A stretch of 63,669 bases of DNA, counting the filler, from Asterionella formosa (taxonomy: Eukaryota), in the NCBI GenBank assembly GCA_002256025.1. It is 26 parts of 26 records of this genome, joined end to end, with 100 filler letters (N's around TTAATTAATTAA, not from the genome) between each part and the next. Parts side by side here need not be neighbours in the genome. Positions count along the whole stretch, not along the records: positions 22,136 to 24,492 come from NKIB01015388.1; 25 more parts are not named here. One strand, given 5' to 3'. Both the position numbers and the translations under genes were made by a program. Shown here one piece after another: positions 1 to 55,068 of this stretch; within the stretch, counting starts at the first letter, position 1; each line of letters opens with the position of its first letter. The notes under the pieces are model-generated. The model was given only the letters and a program-made list of their open reading frames with translations. It ran no database searches and was not told where the DNA came from.

Positions 1-862
1 ATCTACAATGCAAGCGAATATTCATCAATTTATAGGAATACAAATAGAACTATTGATTTGTTCCGGTAACAACTAAAGCTATGACTACTAATTGGACTAC
101 AATGATACTATCATATGACATAAGGGCATGCAAAAGTGATGTGTGGGTAGAATTTGAATTATAAAAGCTATTAGTCCAATCGATTACAGTAGTGGTTTGT
201 CATGTTGTGTTGTGATGCTGATGTTGATTTTCAATCACAAGCAAGATAAATTATAGAATATTTTGGCGTGATGCTAGCGTGGTCTCAGTTATTTTATGAG
301 TGACAACGGACGTGATACACAGCAATCAACGGTTATATCACTGATACAGCATTGGTCAGGGGTCAAAAAACTGTATCAGTGATACATCCGTGATCAGACC
401 TAAAATCTTGTTGGTGATACAAAAAATATGAAACAAGCCGTCATTTTCGAAACAAAAACCAGAGATGATGAACCAATGATGGCCAATGATAAAATGATAA
501 GAACAACCATTGTCACTGATACAGCCATTGATCGCTGTGTATCACATCTATTGTCACTGATAAAATAATGGTAAACATGCCAACCTCACACTAAAAATTG
601 TGTGAACAAAAATTTATTGTGTTATGGTCGTTGACATTGCTTAACATCTGCCCAACATGAAAACCTTTCTGCAATTGATTTTCTCATGGCATATTTGATT
701 TGAATTTTACACTCACACTACTTTTGATTGCTCTCGTCATATCATGATAGCTACAGTTGTAGTCGTAGCAATGGTAATCATGGATTTGCTCGTTGCTTGA
801 ATAAATCAATACCTCGTCTATTTGCATTCCAATAAATTGCCTAACATTTTCTTTCATCATAG
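1..862. repeat. Degenerate long inverted repeat (foldback/MITE-like); arms ~1-345 and ~511-862
   Basis: ttattttatgagtgacaacggacgtgatacacagcaatcaacgg (~289-332) matches the reverse complement of ~526-569; caatttataggaatacaaatag near the start matches the reverse complement of ctatttgcattccaataaattg (~818-839). Confidence 0.75.
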
Positions 863-2361
863 AGCGAGTTGTAATTTTGTACGCAATTTAATGTTATATC
901 TATGATTATTTTCTATTGTATTGTTCATACTATGATATATTAGGTCTCAAAGGCACAACGACTTGTTGGCCATTTTGATGGAGAAATGTATTTGAGGTTA
1001 TCAACATCATGGTCAATGCATTGATGACATGATGTTTATGAGTCTCCCAGTAATAGCATGATGGCGCAGGTACATACTAGTACTTAAAGTCTCCCTTATT
1101 TTAATTGGAGAAATTAGTTATTACATTCCTGTTTCTATATTTTCACAGAAATTAAATAATCCCTGGTCCTGCCTCAGTCATCATTAACTACATCAATGTG
1201 GTCAGACAGCATACATAGCATGATAACTGCCAGTACTCTTACTACGTCGAAAATAATACCCGGATTTGTGTGGAAGCGGAGTATGAAACTTGCATACTTC
1301 TAATAAATCTGATGTCTTAGAATAAACCATTGGAAATAAGTTCTGGTTACGATGGCTGAAGGTAGGAAATATGTGTAGTGGCTACACGTATGAGTTAAGT
1401 AATGTTCGTGGTAGTGTTGTTTAGGTCGAGCCAAGTGTGCAACTAATATCCTTCTTATGGATGCTGAAGGCATAGTAATAGTAGCCCACGTAGACATGAG
1501 GGCTGTTTAGGAAGACAAATGGTGGAAAAATCCTGCACAATGAGGACTTGTAGTACTAAAGTGTGTGGTGCCTAAAATGTGGGTAAGTTAGTGTTCTGAA
1601 GGTGTTTGAGTCAAGATTTTGCTCTCTCTTTTTTGTTTGTTTGTGTGTTGAGGCTTATCGGATTGATTCCTGTGTTGCCAGTAATGTGATAATGTGTGCC
1701 AGAGACTGCGGTTGATTGTTGAAACCTTGGATTCAATCTGTGCTAGTGTGGTGCCTTATTGTGGCGAGTGGTTTGCCTGTATTCATTGAATTCGGCTAGT
1801 TGTGTTGACTCAACATCATAATGATGAGGTAGGACGAAACTGTGCTCTGACATGCTGTGGGAAGAGCCAGTGGCTCTTTTATTCCCTTTGTAGCTGAGTC
1901 TGTTACTGATACATTGCTGATTGATATCTTTTCAAATCAAGTGATACCCAATGCGAAATGATAAGAATGACCCTAGTGCATCATATGATATCATTCCATC
2001 AGACCCTGGTAAAAAAATTCTTACCGGTAAGTATAGACAGGCCATAAAATATACTAAGTAGACGGGATGGAATGTATTTATGGGAATTTTTACATTTGTG
2101 TACAGTACCCTGGTCCAGTACAGCCAAGAAAAATGCCGTCGAATATGGATAAATCCACAGACAGTTACCACCATTAGGTGCAAATAACGCACTCTCCACT
2201 CATACACAACTATTTGTGTTGTTTCTTGAGATAAAATCATTCTAGAAAATACATAGTTCCGATGGAGAACACCAGAAGTCTGCATCGTATCGATGAAAAA
2301 ATATTGTTGAATTTCGCTTGCAGGTGATATTGGAAATTCGATTGACTTACAAAAAGGTGAA

Positions 2362-2461
2362 NNNNNNNNNNNNNNNNNNNNNNNNNNNNNNNNNNNNNNN
2401 NNNNNTTAATTAATTAANNNNNNNNNNNNNNNNNNNNNNNNNNNNNNNNNNNNNNNNNNNN
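2362..2461. other. Artificial contig spacer N44-TTAATTAATTAA-N44 (first of 25; next at 4823, 7282, 9745, 12204 ... 58788, 61229)
   Basis: The same 100-nt N/TTAATTAATTAA/N block recurs every ~2.45 kb; TTAATTAATTAA gives stops in all six frames; content changes abruptly at each spacer. Confidence 0.99.
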
Positions 2462-4822
2462 CAAGATTGACCCTCGCTCATAACGTCACGCATGCTGTTA
2501 CCGCTGATAGAGTCAACGACCCTACTGTTCACTTCAGCTTCCGACGAGGACGTAACACCATCATGGCCGACATTAGGTGACCTTTCGTCGTAGTGTGAGG
2601 TATTTGAATGCTGTGCTTCGACAAAAGTGTTATCTGAACTAGAAATGATACCAGCAAAGTCCGAGCCACTCAATCTGTCTGGCAAAGAGGCAGCGTGAAG
2701 AGGCAAGGAATTGTTACCCTTGTAGCCATCAGACCATGAGCTTGCGGTTCCGTCGTCATTCGTATCATCTCTCAACATTATTGCGTTCCCTGTTGTCGAC
2801 TGTAGAGCCACCCCTTCTAAGATATCTGCAGTATCATGATCGAAGTCCCAAGATTGACCCTCGCTCATAACGTCACGCATGCTGTTACCGCTGACAGAGT
2901 CAACGACCCTACTGTTCACTTCAGCTTCCGACGAGGACGTAACACCATCATGGCCGACATTAGGTGACCTTTCGTCGTAGTGTGAGGTATTTGAATGCTG
3001 TGCTTCGACAAAAGTGTTATCTGAACTAGAAATGATACCAGCAAAGTCCGAGCCACTCAATCTGTCTGGCAAAGAGGCAGCGTGAAGAGGCAAGGAATTG
3101 TTACCCTTGTAGCCATCAGACCATGAGCTTGCGGTTCCGTCATCATTCGTATCATCTCCCAACATTATGGCGTTCCCTGTTGTCGACTGTAGAGCAACCC
3201 CTTCTAAGATATCTGCAGTATCTTGATCGAAGTCCCAAGATTGACCCTCGCTCATATCGATTCGCATGCTATTACCATTGACAGAGTCAACTACCCTACT
3301 TTTCAATTCAGCTTCTGCCGAGAACAAATTCACATCATGGCAAAGATCGGGTGACCTATCATGGTCGTTTGAAAAATCTAAATGTTGGGCACACCTGCTG
3401 CGGCTATAGGAATGATCGTCTGGGTCAACTGATCTCCTCGGTAACAATTCACCACGAGAGTCAAATGAGCGCGCATCGGATCGATGACTATGACCACTAT
3501 AAACCGAGCGATCACCGGTGGTGACCATGGGACTCCTTGACAATGGAGCACCATTGGAGTCGATCGAAATGTCGTCGGAACAATGGCTCCTCGAGCTGAC
3601 AATGGAGCGATCCGATGTGCCTTCTGGTCTCTTCTGATCTTGACCGATGAAGGAATCGGCAGAATTCTCGTTCTTGTCAGAGCGATAACTACCAATGGAG
3701 TATGCTGCATCGCTTGCAGCAGCCGCACTCCTCGGAAGTGGCTCGCTGTCCCTCTCGACAGAGTGATCGCAAGATTGATTACTTTCGTTATTCAATGAAT
3801 GATCTCTATCGAACGCACTATGACGAGAACCGGCATTACTTTCTGGCGATGACTCTTTGTTTGAAGAATATTTCGAGGATCTGACAGAACCTGTGGAGTC
3901 CCGGTCCTTTGCAACATCCGTCAAAGCTACGGAGGCGTCCAATACATTTGATCGATTTCCCCCACTATGGTCGGTCCGATAATCAGAGCGATTCTCAGAG
4001 TCTGATCGGAACGTCCGTGGTGAACCATTGGTATCCATAGTATGGTCGCCTGACAGGTAGCTCCTTGTATAGGAGGAATGATGACCGCTGTCGTCTCGTC
4101 TACTGAGCAATGATTGGTTGAAAGGATCCAAGGAGCGCTCATTTGATCGATAGCTGCTGCTGCGGCTATAGGAATGATCGTCTGGGTCAACTGATCTCCT
4201 CGGTAACAATTCACCACGAGAGTCAAATGAGCGCGCATCGGATCGATGACTATGACCACTATAAACCGAGCGATCACCGGTGGTGACCATGGGACTCCTT
4301 GACAATGGAGCACCATTGGAGTCGATCGAAATGTCGTCGGAACAATGGCTCCTCGAGCTGACAATGGAGCGATCCGATGTGCCTTCTGGTCTTTTCTGAT
4401 CTTGACCGATGAAGGAATCGGCAGAATTCTCGTTCTTGTCAGAGCGATAACTACCAATGGAGTATGCTGCATCGCTTGCAGCAGCCGCACTCCTCGGAAG
4501 TGGCTCGCTGTCCCTCTCGACAGAGTGATCGCAAGATTGATTACTTTCGTTATTCAATGAATGATCTCTATCGAACGCACTATGACGAGAACCGGCATTA
4601 CTTTCTGGCGATGACTCTTTGTTTGAAGAATATTTCGAGGATCTGACAGAACCTGTGGAGTCCCGGTCCTTTGCAACATCCGTCAAAACTGCGGAGGCGT
4701 CCAATACATTTGATCGATTTCCCCCACTATGGTCGGTCCGATAATCAGAGCGATTCTCAGAGTCTGATCGGAACGTCCGTGGTGAACCATTGGTATCCAT
4801 AGTATGGTCGCCTGACAGGTAG
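2462..4822 (-). CDS. Ser/Asp/Arg-rich low-complexity protein fragment built of near-identical 254-aa and 129-aa tandem repeats (open at both contig ends)
   Basis: One open frame across the whole contig; 762-bp repeat period (e.g. 3583 vs 4345) and 387-bp period (caagattgaccctcgctcata at 2462, 2849, 3236), both multiples of 3. Confidence 0.75.
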
Positions 4823-4922
4823 NNNNNNNNNNNNNNNNNNNNNNNNNNNNNNNNNNNNNNNNNNNNTTAATTAATTAANNNNNNNNNNNNNNNNNNNNNN
4901 NNNNNNNNNNNNNNNNNNNNNN

Positions 4923-5684
4923 TTAAAAATAGGATTTGTCATCCAAGCTTTGCTACTTGACTTGTACACAACTCCAAGGCGGATCAAATCAATGTTTCGA
5001 AAACAACGAGGCTTCTTGGATTTCCCAATTATGAGCGGTTGCAGCTTTTACCCAGCTGCACTGCATGTCAAGGCAAATGTAACTCGATCCTTAGCTAATT
5101 TTCCTCCTTTGCATGATTTTGATACTTGATTGAGAGTTGAATTTGGGAGAGCACAATAAAAGTATTCGGTCTCATCCATGTTGAAAATGTTGGCTGGAGA
5201 ATATCCATCACACAAACTAGCCAAGAAAGCTTTCCATTCTTCAGCCTTATCAATGTCTGCATTCCCAGACTCTCCACAAACAGCATAGGATTTGACATTG
5301 TGTCTCTTCTTCCATTTTTCAAGCCAGCCATTAGATGCCTCAAGATTACGATCTTTCTTAAATGCTTTGGCAATCGACAAAGCTTTGCTTTGTAGGATGT
5401 GTCCACTAATTGGATATCCAGTTGCGCAAGCAGCGCAAAACCATCTCCACAATACTGTGTTGATTTCTGTACCAGTATAAAGGCTAGCCATTTTCATGGA
5501 TCGCATCGATTTTCTTTCCATCAATAAGTCGTCCTGCTTTTTCTTTGCCTTTTTGAACAGTTCCAATGCTTATGCCAAGTTTAAAAGCAACTTCTCTAAC
5601 ACTATTCCCTTCACCAAGAAGCTTTATTGCCGCTAACTTTGTATCAATGGAAACACTTTTACGCTTTAACTTCATTTCCGACAT
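4923..5684 (-). pseudogene. Tigger/pogo transposase (CENP-B-type HTH + DDE_1), frameshifted, with an in-frame stop
   Basis: KRKSVSIDTKLAAIKLL HTH; LWRWF...PISG..LQSKA; ASNGWLEKWKKRH; IFNMDET; GGKLAKDRVT; stop at 5048-5050, then KLQPLIIGKSKKPRCF...KAWMT; frameshift near 5490. Confidence 0.9.
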
Positions 5685-6280: not shown

Positions 6281-7381
6281 TATCACGCAAAACAGGTAAA
6301 GTAAAACGAAAAAATTCTGTATGTAGTAAAAACGGAGCAAACAAAAATCCACGGTTTGGGGGGGGGGGGGGGGAGGGATTACCACCCCACAAATTGAGNN
6401 NNNNNNNNCCCCCCCCCCCCCCCCCCCCCCCCCCCGCCGCTTTGCAACACCAATCTTGATGACTTCGAAAAAATTAGATCTTCATGGTTTAATTCACTGG
6501 TGAATCAAAAATGATTATTTATTCGTTGAGTAAAGTGCATTGTCTAACATGCACTTAAAACTTTTCGAGTTTAGAGAATATTAAGCAAAGTATGCAACTT
6601 TTGCTTACTATTGCGTACCTTGGTCATTGCCATTTACCTTTTTTATTCCATTGCCCACGCTTTTGACGTTTCCGCGTTTAGACGAATAAATTAAGGTTGC
6701 AGCTCCGCAGTTACACATTGCAAGGTCCGTATTTTCCAAACATTACGTACAACAAAATAAAATAAAAATTAGCTTTCACCAACAGTGCCACTTTGCTGCA
6801 TATGCTTAGATTCAGTCATTGCTCGACTTTGTGGTATGTTCTATATTCACATATGGTAAGGACCTCATTTCTGGAGAGAAGTGGCAATTATCTCTCTAGG
6901 AATCGTAAATATCCAAAAATAGTCAAAATAGGGGGCTACGAATCATTCTAAAAATCTATTAGAGATAACTGCCACTTCCCTCCAGAAGCAAACTCTTGAC
7001 GTTATAGGGATCACGGCTATATACTTTAATCTTCATGAAACCCAACAGATGGCTGTAGAGCAATCCTCCTCCAAAAAGTCGACCCAATCGGCTTTTTCAA
7101 AAGTCGCCAAAATATTGGACTCGGAAGCCAGGGCCGCAAGAACCTTGCTTGCCCAACGCACACAAAGAAACTAGCTACTGGAGTACATCACTCACTGCAT
7201 TGCCGTTAGTCATGATACAGACGATTTTCAAACAGTCGTGAATTGAAGATGTATGGTTACATTGTTACCATAAGGGATCTANNNNNNNNNNNNNNNNNNN
7301 NNNNNNNNNNNNNNNNNNNNNNNNNTTAATTAATTAANNNNNNNNNNNNNNNNNNNNNNNNNNNNNNNNNNNNNNNNNNNN

Positions 7382-9057
7382 TTGAGACTCTTCCAGACCT
7401 TGTAGTTCTAACATTTGGGTCTGAGTCATCCTGAGTGCTTGGATTGACTTCTAACATTGCCTCTTCATTTTCAGTTTCATTTGCTGGCTCTTCATCCTCA
7501 TCTTGGATTTCATCTGAATTCATTTCAATATTATTCTCATTGTTGCCCTCGTCAGGTTCAGGGTCATCCTCTTGAGTATTGTCATTTAATTCGAGCTGTT
7601 CTGCTTCATATATTTCATCCGGAGTCATTTCGTCATAGTCTTCTTCTCCAAGAATTTCATCATTGCTTTCGTTGTCACTAGCATCTTGATCTTCATAATC
7701 TTCATCTTGTGCATCTTCAAATGCTTCATTATCATAATCCACTCCTGCAATCCAAGCACTATCATAAAATAGTTGCCCCGTTCGATTTGCTATCTTGAGA
7801 CCATCTGGCATATTTTCCTGCACAGCAAGGGCGTGTACTTGATTCATGATTGCTGGGGTAAGTGGTAGAGGAGTAATTGTTCGTCTAGTGATCAATGAAT
7901 TTGTAGGTAGGTGTAACAATTCATGACCTCCTTGCACATTGTCATTGTAGCGTAGAAAAATGCAATCTAGGCTGCGAGGTGCATTTGTGTTTGAAAACAC
8001 AGGTTCTTCATGTGCTTGGACATAAGTGCCAAATGTATACTGGCAATGTCGAGCATAGTCCAGGTTTCGTTGATGTAAAATCATACGAGGACTGTAATAC
8101 GGGGATATCCCGTTCTTTGCCGGAAAGAAATTCAGTTTCCTTGCAGATTCTGTCACTAGAATCTTAATCATCAGTCGCGGCAAATGTTTGAAAGGTAATC
8201 GATGATAAGCTGCGCGCACGCGTTCTTTAATCACTCGATTATTTCGCTCCGCTTCGGGAACATGTTCTTGTGGGTTTGCGTAGTTCATAGTGACTTGAAA
8301 TTCATTGGAAATTTGTTCCATCAAAGGTCGAAACTCGTTGTCACAGTGGATTGTTGTAATTTTAAATCCTCCGGTATTATAAACACGGAATACTTGAATC
8401 AAAGCATCTCGATAGACTTCAGCTGTCTGATTCTTGACCCATTGCGCTGTCCTATACATAATGTTTCGAGAAATTGTTGTGAGAAATGATTGTCCATTGA
8501 CTTTCATTCCATCCATGCAAAGAGTCACTTCGCGTTGAGCTTGGATAAGCTCCTTAGGAATCTCGATGTAGTCGTTCACGACTGGCAGTGGCTTGCGACG
8601 AGTTGTCTTGCCTTTTAGTGTTCCGATGTCAGGTCCAAAAATTTTCTCTGCAATTTTGATATCATCGGTAGTCACTGGATTATTGTTGATCGTATTCATA
8701 CGAATTATTGCCTTGAAATCATTAATTGATGGTGTACCCAAGGCATGAAATAGATCACGAGCTCGCTTAGCTCTCTGAAATTGACGTTCAGTGTAAAATG
8801 TTTTGTTTTCTTCAAGTGTATTCAACATTTGAGCATTCTCCACTCTAATTCTTGTAGTTGGCTTGAAAACATATAAGTTCATCCCAATTCTTTCAAATCG
8901 AACTGTTTTGTCTGGAAAATGAACAATGAATGCATCTTCTTTCTCAGAGTTGTAGGTAATTCTGTACCTATCTGCCATTTCGGCATAACTGAAGATGTTT
9001 GTGATAGCCTTTTCATTAAACCATACTTCTCCCCATTCTGGAAGATCAGCCTTCATA
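7382..9057 (-). mobile_element. Ty1/copia (diatom CoDi-like) pol fragment: end of protease, pre-integrase, integrase core, acidic linker
   Basis: IFGPDIGTLKGKTTR; LCMDGMKV; IHCDNEF; EHVPEAERNNRVIKER (DDE); FGTYVQ. Cut at 9057 by an inserted repeat. Confidence 0.9.
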
Positions 9058-9460
9058 CATCTAAGACGCCGTTTACGGCACTTTTTCGAATTTATGTGTA
9101 AAGTGACGTATTTATGCTACTTTTTTAAAATATTATGTTACTTTTCTAAAATATTATGTTACTTTTTTGAAATATTATGCTACTTTTTCCCTAATTTATT
9201 CGGGTTAAACAAAAATTTATTTCACTTATCGAATAATTATGTGATCACACCAATAATTATGTGTGTTCGTGACAATATATGTTGACCAACTAGCCATCGC
9301 AACAGTTTAAAAGCGAAATTATGCTGCTCTGCCGCAATATTATGCTGCTTTCACCATATAATGAACGAAAGAGTCGCCAATTCCGATTCACTTATTATTT
9401 TTTCCGCTCCGACATATTTCTTTGATCTGAACTGGCTGGCGAAGAATAAGACATGCAAGA
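9058..9460 (+). mobile_element. Non-autonomous element end, family CATCTAAG-A, inserted into the Copia pol
   Basis: Begins CATCTAAGACGCCGTTTACGGCACTTTTTCGAATTTATG exactly where the Copia ORF is cut; subterminal tandem aaaatattatgttactttt; homologous to 12970-13348 (-). Confidence 0.7.
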
Positions 9461-9844: not shown

Positions 9845-10708
9845 GAACATCCCGGCATCCAGCCGACACACAGTGCTACTGCAACACAGTCCCAAATCAC
9901 TGCTGCCAACCGTCTCTTTGACACCTCCCTTGACGCATTCCGCCGTTACTCCCAAATCCGTGAAATTCTCCGACAACAAATTCTAACAGCCATTGACCCA
10001 ACCTACTACAACGTTCTGGAAGATGCTACATTTGGATATGCAGACATCACTGTTCTGACCTTACTTGCTCACTTAGAATCTACATATGCAACATTGAGTG
10101 CGGATGATTTGGAACTCAATCGCATGCACTTGGCCGATGCTTGGACACCAGAGGAACCTATTGAGCATTTATGGATCCGCATCAAACATCTTCGTGCCAT
10201 TGCTGCTGCTGGTGGGGAACCTTTCTCTGACAGTACTGTCATGCGATTGACTCTTTCTGCTTTAGAACAGGCTGGTGTATATTCTCATAGCATTCAAACT
10301 TGGCGTGATCGCGCTGAGCTGGACCGTACATGGGTTAATTTTTGCCCACATTTCATGCATGCTGATAAGGAACGATTGCGCCTTGCCACCGCCACCACTG
10401 CCGGTTATCATGGTGCCCATGCTGCCATTCAAACCAGTGGCCCTCCCCCATTGTCAGCTATTGCTGCCGCTGCTCGTGCTGTCCCTTCTGGATACACTTA
10501 CAACAATGTCCAATTAGGCTATTGTTGGACTCATGGTCTTACCAAAAACCCTGACCATACCAGTGCAACTTGCAATCATCCAGCTTCTGGCCATCAACTC
10601 AATGCCACCCTTGATCGACGTCTGGGTGGCAGCGTCCGTCTTTTCAGTGATGGTCCCCGTCCTACCCGGCCACCCCGTGTTTCACCGCCACCCTCACCAC
10701 TTGCTTGA
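9845..10708 (+). CDS. gag: Ty1/copia Gag (5'-truncated by contig edge), ending at TGA 10706-10708
   Basis: Open from contig edge; AIDPTYY...FGY; WTPEEPIEHLW; zinc knuckle YCWTHGLTKNPDHTSATC. Confidence 0.88.
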   Translation, partial: EHPGIQPTHSATATQSQITAANRLFDTSLDAFRRYSQIREILRQQILTAIDPTYYNVLEDATFGYADITVLTLLAHLESTYATLSADDLELNRMHLADAWTPEEPIEHLWIRIKHLRAIAAAGGEPFSDSTVMRLTLSALEQAGVYSHSIQTWRDRAELDRTWVNFCPHFMHADKERLRLATATTAGYHGAHAAIQTSGPPPLSAIAAAARAVPSGYTYNNVQLGYCWTHGLTKNPDHTSATCNHPASGHQLNATLDRRLGGSVRLFSDGPRPTRPPRVSPPPSPLA

Positions 10709-12203
10709 TGTGGAGGGGAGCAAGTTGCTGTCGATAATACTATTAACACAAACTTATCTCCCATCACTTGTCCCCCCGTCACACTCATTGCTGATTCTGG
10801 TAGTTCTGGAAATTACGCCACTGTTGATTTACCTGTCATCAACAAACGACCTACCACCAACCCTATCACCATTCAACTTCCTAACGGCAACCATGTTAAA
10901 TCTACACATGAGGCCGAATTATCTTTACCTATGCTCTTACCTGCTGCTCGTCATGTACACATTGTCCCTGGTCTACACAATTGCTCTTTATTGAGCATTG
11001 GACAACTATGTGATTCTGGCTACGAGGTACTCTTCACCAAACTACACATGTCTGTCTTATCCGATGGTCATTGCATCCTTCAGGGCCATCGCTCCACCAC
11101 CACTCGATTATGGCATGTCACCACCGCCACGATTGATCCACCATTGCCTACCCCTACCCACTACGCTGCTGCCGCCATTGGCAGTCCCAATGCACCAGCA
11201 CTTGTTGCTTTTGCCCATGCGGCCCTCTTTTCTCCTGTTCTCTCCACTTTGGAAAGCGCATTACTCCATGGGTATCTTGTCAATTTTCCAGGTCTAACCT
11301 TAGCTGCACTACGCAAACATCCCCCTCATTCCATCGCAACCATCAAAGGCCACCTCGATCAAACACGTCAAAACGTACGATCCACACGTGTACCCTCAGC
11401 TATCATTGAGCCTGAACTTGCATCCATTCCTACTACCGATGTGTTGGGTGATGCTGATTTCCACCCTGAGTGTCTTGCAACCCCTACCCACATGTGTTTT
11501 GCGTCCATTATTGCACCCACAGGCCAAATTTACACTGATCAAACCGGAAAATTCATACTCCCCTCCAGCACTGGAAACAACTACATTATGATTTTATATG
11601 ATTATGACAGCAACTACATTTTCGTTCAGCCCTTTCATAACCGAACCGCTTCCTGCCTCCTTGCAGCATATAAAGCATTACATCAACGTTTGTGCAAAGC
11701 TGGCCTACGTCCCAAACTTCAACGCCTTGACAATGAGTGTTCTACACTCCTCAAAGACTTCTTGGACGCCGAAGATATTGACTTTCAGTTGGTCCCGCCG
11801 GCTGTCCATCGTCGCAATGCCGCTGAACGTGCAATTCGCACCTTTCAAAATCATTTCATTGCCGGTCTATGCAGTGTCGACAAACACTTTCCTCTCCACT
11901 TGTGGGACCAACTACTAGTTCAAGCTGAACTTACTCTTAACCTCCTCCGTGGCTCACGCATCAACCCCAAACTGTCTGCTTGGGCACAGGTCAATGGAAC
12001 CTATGATTACAACCGTGTCCCCCTTGCTCCACCTGGCTGTCGGGTCCTTGTTCATGCCAAGCCCCAACACCGCACCACATGGGCTCCGCATGCTCTCGAT
12101 GGTTGGTATGTCGGCCCTGCTGTGGATTCCTATCGCTGCTACCGCATCTGGATGTGGGACACACGTTCAATCAGAATCTGCGATACTGTCTCGTGGTTTC
12201 CAA
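10709..12203 (+). CDS. pol: Ty1/copia Pol (protease + integrase), in frame with gag directly after the TGA
   Basis: Same frame as gag with no further stop: CGGEQVAV...LIADSGSSGNY (protease), LLSIGQLCDSG, IYTDQTGKF, RLDNECS, HRRNAAERAIRTFQNHF; protease-integrase order is the Copia order. Confidence 0.92.
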
Positions 12204-12969: not shown

Positions 12970-13348
12970 CAAAGCAATGTATTATTCTTTGGCAGTTGAT
13001 ACCAAAAAAATATTTGAAAGCAGAAAAAATAATAATTAAATCGATATTGGGGACTCTTAATTTATTTATTTGGTGAAACCAGCGTAATATTGCTGCAAAG
13101 TAGCATAATTTTGCCATCATACTGTAGCAACAGCTAGTTGGTCAGTGAATATTTTTGCAAACACACATAATTATTGGTTTGATCACATAATTATTCGATA
13201 AGTGAAATAAATTTTGTTTTAGATCGCATAAATTCTGGTTTGACCCGAATAAATTCCGGAAAAAGTAGTATAATATTTTAGAAAAGTAGCATAAATAAGT
13301 CACTTAAGCCATAAATTCGAAAAAGTGCCGTAAACAGCGTCTTAGATG
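12970..13348 (-). mobile_element. Second copy of the CATCTAAG-A element end
   Basis: Reverse complement reads CATCTAAGACGCTGTTTACGGCACTTTTTCGAATTTATG; homology to the 9058 copy stops exactly at the CATC terminus. Confidence 0.7.
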
Positions 13349-17377: not shown

Positions 17378-17424
17378 CGAGTTTTTAATCTTATTGGATA
17401 GTATCCAATAAGATTAAAAACTCG
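17378..17424. repeat. 47-bp palindrome (23-bp perfect arms, 1-nt centre)
   Basis: cgagtttttaatcttattggata-g-tatccaataagattaaaaactcg. Confidence 0.95.
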
Positions 17425-18086
17425 TCACGCACTTTGTAATTGTAATCACAAGACCGTCTATGGAAATTAGCACAATTGTATAAGTTTGTCAGATATCACT
17501 TGGCGAGGCTCATATATTAATTGTAACTCTGTAATAAAAGGAATTTTTAATATTCTATAAAGTCGGAAAACCCGTGCTCCTGGTGAAATATGCAATGTAC
17601 CATGGATAGTAGCTCAAGCTGCATATGATGCAGCTGCAAAACATGTAACCACAATATTTTGAACTTAAAATTCATTAATAGGAGGATGAGCCTATCATAT
17701 AACCTGTAGACTGTTACTGATATATTGATGAAAACATTAACAGATACTAGCATTGGCTTGAGGATTCTTGACTGTTAGTTGTAACAACTTAAATTCCATT
17801 CAACACTAACATATGCAAAAAGGAATATCATTAAATTCACCTCCATTGTCATGTATACAATGTTCTTGACGGGGATATCGGGCCAACTACTCAATTTCAA
17901 ACTTAATTGCAATATATTCTGATGATTTATTGTAGCCGGTTCGAAAAGGAGGAGTCAATTGCATTGTTCATTTTTTTCACACAAGGTCGATCTGGTCACC
18001 ATTCGTCTGGAAAAACCCGTTAGGCCTAACAGTTTTGCTGTAAGACCCACTGCCCCAAAAATTCTCAGTATGAACGTATCATTTTT

Positions 18087-22035: not shown

Positions 22036-22156
22036 NNNNNNNNNNNNNNNNNNNNNNNNNNNNNNNNNNNNNNNNNNNNTTAATTAATTAANNNNNNNNN
22101 NNNNNNNNNNNNNNNNNNNNNNNNNNNNNNNNNNNTCACGGCTCTTCCTGGCCGGC

Positions 22157-22171
22157 TAATTCTATTAAAAC
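22157..22171 (-). promoter_or_regulatory. Putative self-priming PBS of LTR-B (GTTTTAATAGAATTA)
   Basis: Abuts the LTR end ...TTTCAACA; exact reverse complement of LTR segment 22294-22308. Confidence 0.75.
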
Positions 22172-22438
22172 TGTTGAAATTGCGTCCCGAAGCACTCTAT
22201 GCTTTCTTGTATCCTGTAAGGACACGTCAGGGACCAAATAGGCTGTAGATATAACAACGATGTCTCCGTGATCGATTGTAATCGTTCCTAAGAGTTTTAA
22301 TAGAATTATGGGTTTTTTACTGTTGGCGTAGATTGTTTTCGAATTCTCTGGTACCATATTCTTTCTTGATTCATTCGATTCAATATGTAGTAGGTAATTT
22401 ATACCGGGATTTTCTTTCCTAAAATATTTTCTCCAACA
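22172..22438 (-). mobile_element. LTR-B (267 bp, TGTTG...CAACA) nested in the protease region of the Copia copy
   Basis: Homology to the contig-5 Copia stops at ...catgtaca and TGTTGG starts at once (22438); 5-bp terminal inverted repeat. Confidence 0.75.
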
Positions 22439-23781
22439 TGTACATGACGAGCAGCAGGTAATAGCATAGGTAAAGATAATTCGGCCTCATGTGTAGATTT
22501 AACATCATGGTTGCTGTTAGGAAGTTGAATGGTGATAGGGTTGGTGGTAGGTCGTTTGTTGATGACAGGTAAATCAACAGTGGCGTAATTTCCAGAACTA
22601 CCAGAATCAGCAATGAGTGTGACGGGGGGACAAGTGATGGGAGATAAGTTTATGTTAATAGTATTATCGACAGCAAATTGCTCCCCTCCACATCAAGCAA
22701 GTGGTGAAGGTGGCGGTGAAACACAGGGTGGCCGGGTGGGACAGGTACTGTCACTGAAAATACAGACGCTGCCACCCAGATGTCGATCAAGGGTGGCATT
22801 GAGTTGATGGCCAGAAGCTGGATGATTGCAAGTTGCACTGGTACGGTCAGGGTTTTTGGTAAGACCATGAGTCCAGCAATAGCCTAATTGGACATTGTTG
22901 TAAGTGTATCCAGAAGGGACAGCATGAGCAGCTGCAGCAATACCTGGCAATGGGGGAGGGCCACTGGTTTGAATGGCAGCATGGGCACCATGATAACCGG
23001 CAGTGGTGGCGGTGGCAAGGCGCAATCATTCCTTATCAGCATGCATGAAATGCGGGCAAAAATTAACCCATGTACAGTCCATCTCAGCTCAATCACGCCA
23101 AGTTTGAATGCTATGAGAATATACACCAGCCTGATCTAAAGCAGAAAGAGTCAATCGCATGACAGTACTGTCAGAGAAAGGTTCCCCACCAGCATCGGCA
23201 ATGGCACGAAGATGTTTGATGCAGATCCATAAATATTCAATAGGTTCCTCTGGTGTCCAAGCATCGGCCAAGCGCATGTGATTGAGTTCTAAATAATCCA
23301 CACTCAATGTTGCATATGTAGATTCGAACTGAGCAAGCAAGGTCAGAACAGTGATGTCTGCATATCCAAATGTAGCATCTTCCAGAACGTTGTAGTAAGT
23401 TGGGTCAATGGCTGTTAGAATTTGTTGTCGGAGAATTTCACAGATTTGGGAGTAACAGCAGAATGCATCAAGGGAGGTGTCAAAGAGACGGTTGGCAGTA
23501 GTGATTTGGGACTGTGTTGCAGTAGCACTGTGAGGCGGCTGGGTGCCGGGATGTTCGGGTGGTAAAAAGGGTTCACCAGCACATAAAAGATAAGGAGCAG
23601 CAGCCATGACAATACCAAGGAAACCATTGCCACGACCACCACTGGTACAGTGGACAGAGCGAGCGTTGGCAAAGAGTTCCTTGCGAAGGCGGGTTACAGT
23701 GAAGGCTTTAGGTTTGCCCTCGATTGGCTTCAAGAGCAGATGAGGGAATGGGAAAACAGCGGAAACGATTGGAGTTGTCAT
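22439..23781 (-). pseudogene. gag: Decayed copy of the contig-5 Copia gag-protease
   Basis: Colinear with 9845-10958; ATG MTTPIV at 23781; premature stop at 23089; gag TGA retained at 22693-22695. Confidence 0.92.
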
Positions 23782-23888
23782 GGTGCTGGAAGAAGGCCTG
23801 AGAGACAGGGACAGCGAACTGGCAAGCGGTGCTGGACGGTTGATTGTTGAGACCAGTGTCACATGTGCGGACAAGAGAGAGAGAACAG

Positions 23889-23900
23889 ATATTGTAGTTC
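23889..23900 (-). promoter_or_regulatory. Putative self-priming PBS of LTR-A (GAACTACAATAT)
   Basis: Abuts the LTR end ...CTCAACA; exact reverse complement of LTR segment 23932-23943; no TGG-type tRNA PBS. Confidence 0.75.
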
Positions 23901-24067
23901 TGTTGAGGGGAACCTTGTCATGAATAAAGGTGAACTACAATATTATGACTATTCTTTTGCTGTTCCAAGTACAGCGTTGTTAGCACTCACGCATGTATCT
24001 AATCTGGTGGCTGCGCCGGTATGGTTCGTACGGCGCATGTATGGAGCATCATATGCAGATATTAACA
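23901..24067 (-). mobile_element. 5' LTR (LTR-A, 167 bp, TGTT...AACA) of the Copia
   Basis: TGTT/AACA termini, 120 bp upstream of the gag ATG; similar in size to the Copia LTR at 49963-50133. Confidence 0.75.
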
Positions 24068-24152
24068 TGTCTGTCTATATATTCACCCATCAGTTCCATT
24101 TCCTCGTGGATATGAGCGGCTTAATCGAACATTTCCTGTTCTTACATCAACC

Positions 24153-24492
24153 ATGCCAGCTCGCGATAACGACACATTGCTAGCAGCCAAGATTGAAGGC
24201 CTATTGCAGATTCCCAATCAAGAGGAAGTGTTGCTAGTGGTCGTTGTGCTTCTGACGAGATTGGAATCTGACGAATTGCTCCACGATATTTTCGATCGTC
24301 ATGATCACCTGTGTCACTTCATGTCCTTGTTAGTTGCATCCAAGCATGATGTGTTTGTGAGATTCGCCTGCTGTGTGGCCTCCAGATTCAAGCTCCAGAT
24401 GGATTGGAATCAATTGGGACAACAGCTGATGGAACTACTGGCACACCGCACACAAGCACCACTGGCTGACGTTGACATTTGGCTCCTTTCAG
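24153..24492 (+). CDS. Hypothetical protein, N-terminal fragment
   Basis: ATG in caaccATG context, open to the contig edge; no motif recognised. Confidence 0.35.
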
Positions 24493-33644: not shown

Positions 33645-34308
33645 TTACAAGATTAGCACCACAATGCTTCCCATGAAGAATATATTGGCAAGCATCATGT
33701 TAAATGTAGAAGCATCACTGGTGGTAGGTGCTTTTGTTGGTGCCAAAGTAGGAGTACTAGTCGACCCAGTTGGTGCAAAAATAGGAGTCCTGGTCGACCC
33801 TGTTGGGACAAAAGCAGGAGTACTAGTCGACCCAGTTGGTGCCAAAATAGGAGTACTGGTCGACCCAGTTGGTGCCAAAGTAGGAGTACTAGTCGACCCA
33901 GTTGGTGCCAAAATAGGAGTACTGGTCGGCCCAGATGGTGCCAAAGTAGGAGACATTTCGGAAGCCATGGGAGTCCCCACCACTGAAGGTGCATTTGTGG
34001 CGACAGCAGCACTGGTAGGTGCTGCTACAGGTGACAAAGTAGGCGTTCCAATGGGAGAGGGGCTTGTTAAAACTTTGGAGCAGCAAGAAATATTGAACCC
34101 AGTTTGGAAATCAGAACAGGTAAAATTGAGTTTTCCATTATTGGCGGCAAACTCTAGGTCATCACATGATGTTGTCTTTGTGCTGTTTTCAAGCTGCAAA
34201 ACCCTTGCTGGTTCGGGCAGTAATTGATCACCGCAGATACGGCATGCACCCTGTGATACAATGGGATTGGAACATCCACAGTAAACCCCTCCTGTAGCCT
34301 GCATAGCG
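33645..34308 (-). CDS. Cys-domain + Pro/Thr-repeat cell-surface protein, 3' part, probable GPI signal
   Basis: CGCSNP...CRICG; six 11-aa LAPTGSTSTPx repeats (33 bp); TSDA followed by a hydrophobic tail. Confidence 0.8.
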
Positions 34309-34587: not shown

Positions 34588-34859
34588 AGATTCTACATAT
34601 TGTTGGTATGTCAAAACTTCTTCTTCTCGGCTGATCAAATTTAACTGTAACAGTATGTATAGCTATTGCTATATAATCTGTGGAGTATTAATATAAATAC
34701 GAAAAAGCCACGTAATCATCAGCCATGATATCATCGATTGTAGGAAGGGTTTTTGAGTATTTATATTATATACATGTTAGCACTTATGTTGTTATGTAAA
34801 TGTACTTAAATTTGATCAGCCGAGAAGAAGTTTTGACATACTAACAGAATGCAGAATCT
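34588..34859. repeat. MITE-like inverted repeat, ~55-bp arms around a ~160-bp AT-rich core
   Basis: gtatgtcaaaacttc(ttc)ttctcggctgatcaaatttaa vs ttaaatttgatcagccgagaagaagttttgacatac. Confidence 0.8.
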
Positions 34860-39447: not shown

Positions 39448-39541
39448 GATTTTCAACTTCATCATCTCTCAGCGAATGTTGACAGCATTCCAGACTTACA
39501 ATGCTGTCAACATTCGCTGAGAGATGAAGAAGTCGAAAATC
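39448..39541. repeat. Long hairpin: 42-bp stem (2 mismatches, inner 28 bp perfect), 10-nt loop
   Basis: tcatctctcagcgaatgttgacagcatt-ccagacttac-aatgctgtcaacattcgctgagagatga. Confidence 0.95.
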
Positions 39542-41764: not shown

Positions 41765-44114
41765 GACAAGATAGACAGACCTGGTGTCATGAGGACACCC
41801 AGATACATATATCTGTCCACAACAGGGAGTGGAAGTCCCTCCAGTTCCAGTCCAGCCACATCTTGTCCAGGGACAAGCGGTTCGGTGGCCGAACCTGGGT
41901 CTGGCGGTAGGAATTCCATCAGCCCGCACTTCCCTATGCCCACACTCATCTCGTTAGCTGTAACCCAGTTGGTAACGTGCGTACAGAACCGTTTGGCCGC
42001 CTCCAGGGAGGGGCAGATTCCGGCCGCATCATCAGCAAAGAGGGTACACCCTACTGTCAGTGTGGAGTTCCGCCATGTGCGACTGTCCCCAGTTGGTACC
42101 AGGGCACCGCTCTCCTCCGTCCCCACTGCCAAGTCATCAATGAAGATGTTGAACAGTATAGGCGAAAGAGGGCAACCCTGCCGCACACCTTGCAGCAGTC
42201 TGCAGGGGTCCGAGTAAAGGGCAGTCAAGCCACCCTCCACTCGTACCCTGATTGTACTGCTGCGATAAAGGGCACGTAGAAAAGCGAGGCAACGTCCCCT
42301 GATCCCAAACCGGGATAGTTTCGCAAAGAGCGCCTCGTGGGGCACCGTATCATATGCCTTCTTGAGGTCTACGAATACCACGTAGGTCGGCTCTCCCACT
42401 ATCCTCCGGCGTTGTATGATTTCCATGACACAGGCCACCTGGGTTACACATTCCTCTCTCTGGCGAAAGCCCGCCTGGGCTCGGCTAAACAGCCCTCGAG
42501 ATTCCGCTTCCACATTTATCCTGGTACCAAGGATCACACACACCAACTTGAGGACAGTGGCCATGAGCGAAATCCCCCGATAGTTGTTCATATCAGCCAA
42601 GTCCCCTTTCTTAGGTATTGAGATGACCAGTGACTCAGCCCATGACTGGGCCACCAGTCCCCTCTCATACGCAAAGTTGAGTAGGGTTCCTAGTGAGTCC
42701 GTCATTGGAGCGGATGGTGGCGGGGTGGTCTCCTACGATGGCTCTTCATCTTCCTCAGGGCAGTCCAAATATCGGAGGTTGTGAAGGGTTCGTCCAGCGA
42801 ACGGATCCCCTCATTTGCCTGTGGGTGTGGGTCAAATTTCTCCCAATATTGGGCCTCCTGGCTATGACCGGTTTCATCTACTGCTAGAGAGGCATAGTGC
42901 GCTCCCCAGGCCTGATGAATATCAGTCAAAGCTGTCAGCAGGCGTCCATCTGGGCCAAGGACCGGTTGGACCCCTGCGATGCTGCTCTTCTGGCGCCATC
43001 CTGCAGTCGCTGAGGCCCACCGCCAATAATGGCGAGGTTTCTCGCGCATATTGACGTGAGCCTCCCTAATTTCCTTATACCATGCCCGCCTACCCGAGAG
43101 GCGGATCACCTTCCGCGCCCTCTCTTTGGCAGCCTTGTACATGTCCCCAAGCCGTGCTACATCTTCACGGTCTCCTCGCGACTCCGCCCTCCGGGTTTCC
43201 CGGAAGATCCTCCTTCGGGTCTCAATCGCCCGACGTACCTGTCCTGTCACTCTTGGTGGGTTTTGTCCCGCCACCCGTTGGTGGAGGTTCAGGTCCTCTG
43301 CCACCTGGTGACATGTTGTAGTGAACTTCTTGGCCATACCATCCAACCTTTCCTGGTGGTAACTGGTGGGGTTTTCAAGTGAATGTGAGCACTCGATTAC
43401 ATCCTCCAGGTCCTCTTCCAGCGAGTCAGCTAGTGGCTGCCAATAGTTACTACTAGCCACGGTTACTTTGAGTTCCTTCTCTTCCATCACAATCCGCCGG
43501 TACAGTGATTCCGGCCGTGGTGGGGCAATCCCCATATCTGGGATTCTGGTAAGCCCAGGTAGGTCCGCAACAACTGGGAAGTGGTCCGAAATATCCCATG
43601 TGTCGAGGACCCTGGCAGGGGGGACAGCCGCCACTGTGTCACCACAATATGTGATGAAATCAATGGCAGGTGTTGGCTGTCCCTCCCGCCGGCTTTGGCG
43701 AGTGGAGGCCCCCCCTCGGATGGGTAACACCCGAAAGGGAAGCCGCCACGGTCCCATCAGAATCTGCAACTCCGTCATCTTCATGTTGAAGTCTCCCATC
43801 ATCACAATGGGATCTTCTGGAAACTCCCGATGCAGAGCGTCCAAGGCTCGGGGCAGGGCCCTGAGCACTCGGATGCGATCCGCTCTGCATGGGACATAAA
43901 TTGTTCCCACGAGAATAGGCCTCAAGAGGGTGGCCCCATAGACTCTCGCAAAAGTCCAAAATGGTGTGGCCTTACCAACTGGGGTACAGTTGAATTTGGT
44001 CGACACCAGTATTGCCACACCTCGCTGCGACGCTGTCAGGTCCCCCATTGCTGTGAGGCAATGGTAACCTGGCAAACGAAGCTGCCAATCCGTTGATCGG
44101 AGCAGCGTCTCCTG
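41765..44114 (-). mobile_element. Non-LTR retrotransposon ORF2 (APE endonuclease + RT), frameshift/deletion near 42700-42740
   Basis: QET, RGVAILV, MGDFN, IDFI, SDHFPV (APE); IPKKGD..NYRGISL, QAGFR, DLKKAYD, GVRQGCPLSP, FADD, YLGV (RT); the expected KAPGxDG motif is missing at the break. Confidence 0.95.
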
Positions 44115-46663: not shown

Positions 46664-47689
46664 GATACTTGGCGTATTGCTATTCCTACATCATTATTGG
46701 ATCCTATTATTAATTGGTATCATCAGATGTTAGCTCATGTGGGTATGACAAGATTAAATGCTACAATTGCTACACATTTTTATCACCCTATATTAAAAAC
46801 AAGAGTGGAACATATTGTAAGAGTATGTGAAGCATGTCAACGTACAAAATTACCTGGTACTGGTTTTGGTGAACTTCCACCCAGGAATGCATTATTATTA
46901 CCATGGTCAGAAGTCGCAGTAGATCTAATTGGTCCATGGAAGATAACAGTGGCTGCTCAAACGATTGAATTTCGTGCTCTAACTTGTATTGACACAGTCA
47001 CCAATTTAGCAGAAATTTCACGTATCATCAATAAAACATCAGAATATATTGCAATGAAATTTGAAAATGATTGGTTAGCCAGATATCCCCGTCCAGAACG
47101 TTGTATACATGACAATGGAGGTGAATTTACTGGTGCTCCTTTCTTACACATGTTAATATTGAATGGAATCAAAGATGTGACTACCACAGTAAAGAATCCA
47201 CAAGCAAATGCTATCTGTGAACGTTTCCATCAATCTATCAGCAATAGTCTACGAGTTATGTTAAAGGCTCATCCTCCAATCAATGAATTTCAAGCCCAAA
47301 ATATTGTGGATACATGTTTTGCAGCTGCGTCATATGCAGCTCGAGCTACTATTCATAGTATATTACGTATTTCACCAGGAGCATGGGTTTTCCAACGTGA
47401 TATGATATTAAATATTCCTTTGATTACAGATTTACAATTAATACATCAACGTCGACAGGTGATAATTGACGAACGTTTACGTCGTGCAAATTTCCGTCGT
47501 CGATCTTATGATTACAAAGTGGGTGACGAGATTTTAATATTATTGGATAATCCTACTACTTTGGATGATCGTGGACGAGGTCCTTATACTATTATTCAAG
47601 TACATGCCAATGGTACAGTTACTTTTCAACGCACTATGCATATTACCGAACGAATTAATATTCGTCGTATCAAACCTTTTCATAGGTAA
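46664..47689 (+). CDS. pol: Ty3/gypsy integrase (end of pol)
   Basis: HHCC (WYHQMLAH...CEACQ), AVDLIGPW, HDNGGEF, NPQANAICER, GPY motif; integrase is last in pol. Confidence 0.93.
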   Translation, partial: DTWRIAIPTSLLDPIINWYHQMLAHVGMTRLNATIATHFYHPILKTRVEHIVRVCEACQRTKLPGTGFGELPPRNALLLPWSEVAVDLIGPWKITVAAQTIEFRALTCIDTVTNLAEISRIINKTSEYIAMKFENDWLARYPRPERCIHDNGGEFTGAPFLHMLILNGIKDVTTTVKNPQANAICERFHQSISNSLRVMLKAHPPINEFQAQNIVDTCFAAASYAARATIHSILRISPGAWVFQRDMILNIPLITDLQLIHQRRQVIIDERLRRANFRRRSYDYKVGDEILILLDNPTTLDDRGRGPYTIIQVHANGTVTFQRTMHITERINIRRIKPFHR

Positions 47690-52590: not shown

Positions 52591-54002
52591 TGCTAGTTTA
52601 CTACTCCGACTACCCCCAGTATATCAGTTACTACCTGCTACTGGTACCCTGTATATATATATGATACATTGTTATTGTCATATGATGTACCGGTACACAT
52701 GAAGAGCTCCCGCCCAAAAAAGGGTCTTAAACAATTTGCTACCAAAACCCTTGCGGCATTTGAACGGTCTAAATAATTAGTTTCAATGGACGTAGAAAAT
52801 ATCGATGCAAACAAATTTCAGAGATAATACCGGTACACGTACCGGTAGTCGTGGAAAACAATGGACATATAGTGCATTGAGTATTTTCGAATTATGTATA
52901 TGCGAGTATGATCATCTCAACCATATCAGATGTTCCAAATCGAGAGCGCCTTTGAATTTTATAAAATGTATAACGCTATATATATATATATATTTACAAA
53001 TTTTATTACTATATTCATGGCTAATATATTTTACAAATCGTTCTGTCATGTTAACAAACAATGCCTGCTGCTTCATGAAAAGATACGTTGTAGTAAAGCA
53101 CATGACAAGAAAAGAAAATTTTTGCAATACATAACGAAAAACATTCTGACTTCGACACATTGCGCCTTCGAAGGATGGAGAATGTTTAAGGTAATGAAGC
53201 CATCAATGTGCGTGGTACTTGGATAAAAATCGTCGGGAGGCAGGCAGCACAACAACAAATTGTTAACTAAACGCAGCCACATTTCCTTTTTTCTCAGTTG
53301 ATTCAACAGCTCGTTTCGCTTGTTGGGGAGCACCAATGTAAAACAGAACCAAATTGCGTAATTGCTCTTGTCACTCGTTGGACCTATTCACTTCTGTTGG
53401 AATAAAGCTGACAAAACGTTTACCTTCTCTCAAAGTTAAGATGACAAAAATGAACCGGTAAGTTTTATTCGACAACATTGGATACCCGAAACTTACTTAT
53501 TCAAGAATTTGGCTTACTGACAAGTTACTATAACAGACTTATGCATCAGTTGCATTGATTTGTGGTAAGTGAAGCAAGAGGATACGATGGAATTGCGTGT
53601 CGTTGTTTCAATGTAACATGACTACTAGCTAACAAATCATTCCTTCTCATTGTTTCTGTAACTGCATAGGACCATAAAACCAAACAACGGAATAGTCGGC
53701 GAAAAATGCTAGTATGGCTTGTCAGCTCACGCATTGTTGTTGACAACAGGCAGGGACAATGAGGTCCGGAATGGAAGTTGTTCTGGTAAGATTACTGCGC
53801 TATTTTGACGGCTATATGAGCAACGCTACTGATAACTCACACTGATCTTCCTCTACATTCAATTGACATTGCAGAAAACCCTTTCAATTCAGGAGCATTC
53901 NNNNNNNNNNNNNNNNNNNNNNNNNNNNNNNNNNNNNNNNNNNNTTAATTAATTAANNNNNNNNNNNNNNNNNNNNNNNNNNNNNNNNNNNNNNNNNNNN
54001 GT

Positions 54003-54233
54003 GCCGCAAATGTGTTTGGAGACAACGCAAGTGTGGTAAAGAATGTGACTAGGCCTGAGTCAACGTTAAATAAAAGGCATAATGCGATTGCTTATCACAA
54101 GTGTCATGAGGCTTGTGCATGCGGATCGGCGCGTGTTGCACATGAACCTGGTAAGGCTAACTGCTCTGATGGTCTAACGAAAATACTCACTGGGGTGCCG
54201 TTTTATCATTTTGCCAGGAGTGTTTTATATTAA
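54003..54233 (+). CDS. pol: Ty1/copia RNase H C-terminus
   Basis: FGDNASVV...STLNKRHNAIAYHK...NCSDGLTK. Confidence 0.88.
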   Translation, partial: AANVFGDNASVVKNVTRPESTLNKRHNAIAYHKCHEACACGSARVAHEPGKANCSDGLTKILTGVPFYHFARSVLY

Positions 54234-54274
54234 ATTGTTTCTGTTATATCTATTAGAACATTGCTTGAGAGCGA

Positions 54275-55068
54275 TATTAAGTGATGTTTGATACAGAACA
54301 AGGTTCAATGACTACTGTTCTTTTCCAAAACGGAATAGGAAGACAGTGGGTTGCGAATCGGAATACATGGTACAGCCCAAAATGGACTGAGTGATGAAGA
54401 TCACTGGCAGAACCGGTCGTTATTGTTGCAATGGAGGAGCGTTTTCACGGTGGCATCTGGCAGCCATGGTTACCACCGTGGGGGGACTGGTAAATTCTGG
54501 GTATATATGTCAGGGTGTCTCAGGCGTATGCTCAACGGGGAAACCGTTAGGTGTATTCCTGCGAGGTCTGTCTTGTGACATGCAGGCGCCTGGTACTAGC
54601 GGCCTGTATGACCAGCGTGCATTTTGGTCATCCTTGAGTGGGTAATCCTTGTCTGGAATATGTCGAGTTTTTCCCATCCAACAAGTTGTGTTGGATATTG
54701 CTTTGTGATTACTTCTTTTATGTGGTACCCTTCGATAGCGCTAATTGCAACATTAGGTTCAGTATTCTCCCCATCGCCTGTTTGATAGGAGAATTAGTCG
54801 ATGGGATGGGATGGGATGGGAATGATAAATACGGGAACGAGATTGCTCGGGTTCTCCGGGTAATTGGTGACTTCCTGCTTACTGCAACTGATGAATCAGA
54901 TATCCACAGTATTGATGGGTACTGGTACAACGTGGTTGTACCATCTACGTAGATACATACTAACCTAGTAAAAAGTACTGCTGGAACGGCCTCAAGTCAC
55001 AACTTGTTGGACCTACCATTACAGCAGGGCACTAACAGGCCAATTCGTCTTTAGATAGTATCTTATCA
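54275..55068 (+). mobile_element. Probable LTR (~794 bp, TATTAAG...CTTATCA) between a pol end and a gag start
   Basis: Preceded by purine-rich GAGAGCGA and followed by a PBS-like tract; left boundary approximate. Confidence 0.55.

Follow-up and report, generated by a model that had tools for sequence, protein, structure and literature searches.

A diatom Ty1/copia retrotransposon that probably primes reverse transcription with the 5′ end of its own RNA

A Ty1/copia retrotransposon of Asterionella formosa probably primes its own reverse transcription, in the manner of Tf1 and without a tRNA. The primer binding site (PBS) of this element is perfectly complementary to a segment inside its own long terminal repeat, here called LTR-B, and the same layout was found in 5/5 testable families (LTR-B, LTR-A, L011, L012 and L015), with pairings of 12-17 nt. 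The window, that is, the whole stretch of DNA analysed, is 63,669 bases long and consists of 26 contigs of about 2.35 kb, joined by spacers of the form N44-TTAATTAATTAA-N44. The inverted repeat of LTR-B lies at the left end of contig 22136-24492, whose start is 21 nt before position 22157, as a preliminary description of the sequence had noted.

Eukaryotic host genes are found elsewhere in the window, encoding an HSF-type DNA-binding protein, an ESF1 fragment and a CitMHS/TrkA-C transporter. The named relatives of the transporter are diatom proteins (Attheya 66%, Thalassiosira oceanica 54%, Phaeodactylum 50%), and a further relative with a CCRYP prefix (48%) is presumably from Cyclotella cryptica. 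These relatives fit a diatom host. A run of G, a gap of 10 N and a run of C at 6358-6435 look like a sequencing or scaffolding artefact.

Results

LTR-B is a repeated LTR

The preliminary description had read 22172-22438 as a repeated LTR with TGTTG...CAACA ends, and this is confirmed. LTR-B, the 267-nt 5′ LTR of the element (22172-22438, minus strand), reads TGTTGG...TTTCAACA on its sense strand. Because the window holds no second copy of LTR-B, data from outside were used to establish its status. The stretch occurs, whole or in part, in 20 rows of public runs from 18 studies, with at least half of the sampled words present in 16 of the 20. Four public runs were compared with the contig for boundary mapping, and contigs from runs X17, X2 and X15 diverge from it exactly at 22171/22172 and 22438/22439, with heterogeneous flanks, so that loose ends pile up at both borders. 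X15 record 9 and X2 record 24 cover 22136-22438 with no mismatch and one gap, and both extend past the left end of the contig.

A metagenome scan with the 20-nt junction returned ten loci, four of which (L002, L003, L005 and L010) are true copies with 97-100% identity. They carry the same 267-nt unit with the same ends in other contexts and diverge upstream of the unit. The remaining six (L001, L004, L006-L009) have only the 20-mer in common with LTR-B and were rejected as chance matches. Independent assemblies agree on the sequence of the LTR-B region. The window contains only the 5′ LTR of the element, and paired LTRs were seen in the relatives L015 (494 nt, 97.8%) and L011. Summed DNA depth in run X1, which is not a copy number, reached 1.3-1.6 million on LTR-B versus 0.8-4.5 thousand on 24111-24492. 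LTR-B-like sequence is near-identical in freshwater, lake, estuary, marine and sediment metagenomes (18 studies), and the host diatom or the LTR-B element family seems to be widespread.

LTR-B is nested in a second, distant element

LTR-B is inserted in the interior of another element, element A, of which gag and the start of protease (22439-23900, minus strand) were recognised from open reading frames and from 95% identity to 9845-10964. The copy of element A at 9845-12203 (plus strand, gag-PR-INT, 95% identical) lacks the LTR-B insertion and runs uninterrupted across the insertion point, with the empty site between 10959 and 10960, which bears out the nesting proposed earlier. The empty site is also present in one DNA-run contig of X2, with a loose end at 22439. 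Of the two junctions of the insertion, the window includes the one at 22438/22439. LTR-A, the 167-nt 5′ LTR of element A (TGTTAA...TCAACA; 23901-24067, minus strand), ends on the outer side at 24067, where contigs of X1 and X15 have loose ends; its inner end was set from the TGTTG motif, with the PBS arm directly after it. Element A is copia-like. The sequence of LTR-B is unrelated to that of LTR-A, as had been stated, and the proteins of the two elements barely align (best BLASTP E 0.06).

The element is a Ty1/copia retrotransposon on the minus strand

The preliminary description had left the superfamily of the LTR-B element open and had asked for its internal sequence. The latter was obtained from L010, which reaches 5 kb past the end of the window contig. 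An open frame of 1435 aa on the window's minus strand starts about 120 nt after the PBS and holds, in this order, a CCHC gag knuckle, an integrase-like core and a reverse transcriptase (RT) that matches Pfam RVT_2 (E 5.9e-11, 42.9 bits against a cutoff of 31.6). Since the integrase precedes the RT, the LTR-B element is a Ty1/copia element with the order gag-PR-INT-RT, lying on the minus strand. In L010, the RNase H part (358-627) is out of frame with the rest of pol (705-5012, minus strand), owing to a frameshift or an assembly error near 700. Full-length relatives of the protein measure 1600-1650 aa, and its nearest named relatives are from diatoms (Fragilaria crotonensis 63-64%, Nitzschia inconspicua 61%). 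No relatives were found among viral contigs with either a single protein or an alignment as query.

In L002 and L005, the LTR is immediately preceded by the C-terminal end of the pol frame and a purine-rich tract; these two contigs are collapsed assemblies of polypurine tract (PPT), LTR and PBS. The PPT side before the LTR, together with the strand of the open frame, identifies 22438 down to 22172 as the 5′ LTR. With this orientation, 22171 down to 22157 falls exactly at the place of the primer binding site. The 5′ leader that follows is represented in the window by its first 21 nt (22136-22156, minus strand), cut by the contig end, and continues in L002, L003, L005 and L010, where it measures about 120 nt and runs into the gag ATG.

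In L002, L005, L011, L012, L015 and L017, CAGGAGTG closes the tract that precedes the 3′ LTR, and TGTTGG comes next. A further copia 3′ end in the window (54001-54683) carries CCAGGAGTG at 54212-54223 before an LTR ending in CCAACA, and the arrangement looks like a conserved polypurine tract/LTR junction of this copia group.

Another copy of the LTR-B family, comprising the PR-INT part of the interior (7383-9056, minus strand), was detected by tblastn with the L010 polyprotein, of which residues 481-1038 match at 98.6% identity. This copy is interrupted at 9056/9057 by a repeated non-LTR sequence that occurs at 9057-9434 and, on the opposite strand, at 12993-13348. The two occurrences are 80-91% alike, contain short AT-rich tandem motifs and start directly after an A with TCTAAGACGC at both sites. 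We take this A|TC start to be reminiscent of a Helitron 5′ end.

Several other repeats occur in the window. A piece of a LINE-type retrotransposon (41767-44114, minus strand) encodes an endonuclease/exonuclease/phosphatase domain followed by RVT_1, in a contig that is unusually G+C-rich at 42001-44000 (0.56). A Ty3/gypsy-type integrase (Integrase_H2C2) lies at 46664-47686 on the plus strand, with inverted copies at 17478-17932 and 59630-59940, and its family has several copies of 83-88% within the window. Tandem repeats were seen at 2462-3390, where three 387-nt units (76-99% alike) fall within a 786-aa open frame without a Pfam match, and at 33703-33966, where six 33-nt units fall within another long open frame.

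The PBS of LTR-B pairs with its own LTR

The stretch 22157-22171 is the exact reverse complement of 22294-22308. The perfect complementarity to the element's own LTR that had been described thus holds, but its length of 15 bp does not: the perfect pairing comprises 16 of 16 nt (22157-22172 with 22293-22308), and 18 of 19 if extended to 22175/22290. The PBS (22157-22172, minus strand) accordingly consists of the last LTR base and the next 15 nt, abuts the confirmed LTR end and is identical in 5/5 copies. Its perfect complement (22293-22308, minus strand) is the proposed 16-nt self-primer and would form the 5′ end of the transcript, at the start of R, with CCA before it. The part of the LTR upstream of this segment (22309-22438, minus strand) would then be U3, the promoter part.

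The duplex has an energy of -16.3 kcal/mol. When the 160-nt RNA from 22309 to 22150 was folded, its ends paired around a branched U5 at -44.3 kcal/mol (z -4.47), and 0 of 200 shuffles were as good. All primer bases are paired with the PBS in the minimum-energy fold in 5/5 families, partly by construction, each RNA having been trimmed to begin where the pairing begins.

Block-shuffles (30, all contigs) contain 0.07 inverted repeats of at least 15 nt within 400 nt per window. Since the real window holds about six others of this kind, it is the position of the pairing and not an enrichment of inverted repeats that carries the argument. These others include a 28-nt hairpin with a 10-nt loop (39462-39527), a 23-nt near-palindrome (17378-17424), overlapping arms of 19 and 25 nt about 160 nt apart (34606-34841) and a 23-nt pair at a contig start (12308-12422), which could be MITEs or hairpins. 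For copy L002, about 190 further 20-nt windows from the kilobase that follows the LTR were compared with the LTR, and none matches it by more than 9 nt. Copies within the LTR-B family agree at 97-100%, and both arms are invariant among them, which leaves only comparisons between families (n=5) to show covariation.

The same layout recurs in four other families

The preliminary description had attributed the same layout to LTR-A and LTR-B, and both PBS do pair with their own LTR, over 12 and 16 nt, respectively. The PBS of element A (23889-23900, minus strand) follows directly after CAACA and is complementary to an inner segment of LTR-A (23932-23943, minus strand). None of 191 control windows reaches this length (maximum 10 nt). 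With 12 nt, the LTR-A pairing is short, and so would be its R-U5, at 43 nt.

A profile built from 13 relatives led to eight loci in contaminated MAG contigs. Three of these are testable, as they include the 5′ LTR end, the PBS and a sufficient length of LTR, and the pairing is present in all three: 17 nt in L011, 14 nt in L012 and 16 nt in L015, whose proteins are 61%, 44% and 42% identical to that of the LTR-B element. The 3′ LTR copy of L011 breaks off 18 nt before the LTR end, and the full LTR used in its test was pieced together from two copies. Left out of the 5/5 count were L016, which has a PBS-like stretch after CCAACA and only 57 nt of LTR, L017, with a partial LTR and no PBS, and the internal pieces L013, L014 and L018. 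The genomes behind L011, L012 and L015-L017 yielded only the same elements and fragments, with no new testable family, and no clear 5-bp target duplication was readable at L015.

Control windows from the downstream kb (190-200 per family) never reach the observed lengths, with maxima of 8-10 nt versus 12-17 nt. The PBS starts at the last LTR base or at the next base in 5/5 families, and the 3′ end of the inner segment is placed at the U5/PBS border, where a primer would be extended, in each of them. The five PBS sequences are AT-rich and mutually different, and each matches its own LTR. None of them starts with TGG (0/5), nor does any other TGG... PBS-like sequence follow any of the five LTRs.

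Comparison of LTR-B with L011 revealed that 6 of 16 primer positions differ and that the six matching PBS positions differ too, leaving both duplexes perfect. Within the U5 helix between the arms, four pairs are kept through double changes in a three-way RNAalifold analysis. This alignment misplaced the L011 primer by one base, and its terminal-stem counts understate the pairing. An end-anchored comparison was therefore used for the pairing, and the five-way R-U5-PBS alignment was too poor for pair counts. The earlier suggestion of a lineage-wide system is strengthened by L011, L012 and L015 (3/3 testable), which have the same layout with different, co-varying sequences. With proteins that barely align, element A and the LTR-B element show that the trait is shared by distant lineages.

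Position of the transcript start

In 5/5 families, the pairing starts at a YCA trinucleotide or 0-3 nt after one. Noticed after the fact, this motif could be an initiator. The inner segments had been described as starting within CATAAT, which is correct for LTR-B and LTR-A and is not general, the motif being absent from the relatives L012 and L015. LTR-B also has a TATA-like motif, which is separated from the proposed start by about 95 nt and is too distant to argue from.

The RNA-run data are assembled contigs, which cannot show RNA ends. One such contig (22264-22405) spans the proposed start, as expected for the U3-R of a 3′ LTR or for DNA carry-over, and gives no support. Summed contig depth in X17, a polyA run, is 5.8-14.8 thousand over 22136-22293 versus 167-613 over 22294-22451, and 23953-24110, in the outer part of LTR-A, has no cover. 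This pattern would fit starts at the predicted places of both LTR-B and LTR-A, but contig depth in X17 cannot rank gene parts and uncovered parts prove nothing, so the pattern was not counted as evidence.

Proposed priming mechanism

Based on the geometry of these pairings, the LTR-B transcript would begin within the LTR, at about 22308-22309, with either the A of CCA or the base that follows it as its first nucleotide. The first 16 nt or so of the RNA would loop back across a structured R-U5 of some 120 nt to reach the PBS, which begins at the last LTR base; the pairing of the two is seen in the sequence and in the folds. By analogy with Tf1, the element's RNase H would cut the RNA after the paired stretch. 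The 3′ end thus freed would lie exactly at the U5/PBS border, and its extension through U5 and R would produce minus-strand strong-stop DNA; the geometry can be read from the sequence, while the chemistry is carried over from Tf1. A tRNA would not be needed, and at least four other diatom-type copia families, including the unrelated host element A, would use the same device.

Discussion

Alternative readings of the pairing

The pairing could be real and selected and serve packaging, dimerisation, translation control or strand transfer, with another primer in use, which we consider unlikely but worth keeping in mind. Other LTR elements and retroviruses also have long-range pairings near the PBS, and the evidence presented here consists of sequence and folds, not of priming chemistry. 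An extra stem-loop is mentioned for Rous sarcoma virus in the excerpted text of PMC5445492, where a conserved hairpin of unknown role at the place of the PBS is also described for the fungal GalEa copia elements. Such a role does not account well for an inner arm whose 3′ end falls exactly at the U5/PBS border in 5/5 families, for the pairing of the PBS itself rather than its flanks, or for the lack of another TGG... PBS-like sequence after the LTR in all five. Alternatively, a host tRNA fragment or another small RNA might prime at the PBS, the similarity to the LTR being incidental. Some Ty1/copia lineages do use internal halves of tRNA-Met or tRNA-Ile (PMC6317226, in excerpt), but the five families have five PBS, each matching its own LTR with compensated changes. 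A shared cellular primer is disfavoured because it would keep the PBS constant, yet the PBS varies with the LTR; with AT-rich sites that lack a TGG start, we hold a cellular primer to be very improbable. No Rfam match was found in contig 22136-24492, and neither the window nor the loci contain a tRNA gene, so there was no host tRNA to compare with the PBS.

It is scarcely credible that the inverted repeat represents the terminal inverted repeats (TIRs) of a small MITE (22157-22308) at the edge of the repeat, or a product of chance or assembly. TA is present at both outer ends (22157-58 and 22307-08) and could pass as a target duplication, and several other inverted repeats of at least 15 nt occur in the real window. 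The unit repeated in other samples is nevertheless 22172-22438 and not 22157-22308; the left arm belongs to a leader running into gag in L002, L003, L005 and L010, while the other arm lies within the LTR; and no copy without the supposed MITE was seen. The layout also recurs with other sequences in four more families, which speaks against chance as well, and independent assemblies give the identical sequence, which speaks against an artefact. The repeat boundaries, the continuation of the leader into gag and the recurrence in other families refute the MITE reading. The preliminary description had itself named the two findings that would count against its own reading, the absence of a repeated LTR and TIRs of a MITE; both were looked for, and neither holds up against the confirmed LTR borders and the leader continuing into gag. 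Self-priming from the 5′ end of the RNA is thus our preferred reading of the pairing.

Scope and implications

Self-priming may even be the general, perhaps ancestral, start of reverse transcription in diatom Ty1/copia elements, a tentative idea that we put forward with more doubt than confidence. It is based on two lineages with barely aligning proteins and on every testable relative down to 42% identity. An excerpt of PMC3601003 voices the idea that self-priming by a hairpin is older than priming by tRNA, an order that such a general role would support, provided that the oldest LTR retrotransposons are of the copia type. LTR finders and classifiers usually require a tRNA-type PBS, which self-priming diatom copia elements, if they are such, would fail to provide. 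Diatom copia elements make up much of diatom genomes, and a rule that compares the PBS with the element's own LTR would improve annotation and predict, with an error of a few bases, where transcription starts in each family. Self-priming would extend to a second superfamily and, after fungi/vertebrates and land plants, to a third major group of hosts, and its spread bears on the choice between an old origin and repeated origins. We found no published treatment of self-priming in diatom retrotransposons in the literature searched, part of which was available in excerpt. The mechanism itself is already known from Tf1 and predicted for plant copia elements, and the novelty is smaller than the preliminary description implied.

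Comparison with known systems

The closest functional parallel is offered by Tf1 and Tf2 of Schizosaccharomyces pombe and the Tf1/sushi group (Tj1, Tcn1, vertebrate sushi), which likewise have a PBS complementary to part of their own LTR. The pairing with the PBS involves the first 11 bases in Tf1, where RNase H cleaves the RNA between bases 11 and 12 (PMC7175516, in excerpt), and the self-priming layout of Tj1 is given in part of PMC4600332. As in this group, the LTR stretch is taken as the 5′ end of the mRNA, no tRNA-type PBS is present and a structured U5 lies between the arms. The LTR-B element shares with the Tf1 type a PBS complementary to the same LTR and a pairing kept by compensating changes in relatives. 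Tf1/sushi elements are, however, Ty3/gypsy elements with RT before INT, whereas the LTR-B element is Ty1/copia, with INT before RT and RVT_2. Membership of the Tf1/sushi clade was rejected on this order and on the presence of RVT_2 instead of an RVT_1-type domain, so that the likeness is functional only. The pairing is 11 nt in Tf1 and 12-17 nt here, in a diatom host and known from sequence alone.

The TG...CA direct terminal repeats, the INT-before-RT order and the copia-type RT are those of Ty1/copia elements. Assignment to the tRNA-primed LTR elements was rejected, given that 0/5 families have a PBS with a TGG start. The plant Ty1/copia TAR lineage (Houba, Osr-1) is similar in that self-priming has been predicted from complementarity between PBS and LTR, a comparison that draws on the published description in an excerpt of PMC6317226. 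TAR elements belong to land plants, whereas the nearest named relatives of LTR-B are diatom proteins. The CoDi copia elements of diatoms (Maumus et al. 2009, PMC2806351) are Ty1/copia elements that dominate in diatom genomes, and the LTR-B element probably belongs to the same broad group. The main text of that paper mentions neither tRNA nor priming, and "PBS" appears in it only as a wash buffer. The fungal GalEa copia elements, as described in the excerpted text of PMC5445492, also lack a tRNA-type PBS and carry a conserved self-complementary sequence in its place. This Conserved Hairpin Site is a local palindrome for which its authors detected no complementary sequence in LTR/U5; in the diatom families, by contrast, the partner of the PBS lies 43-150 nt upstream, inside the LTR.
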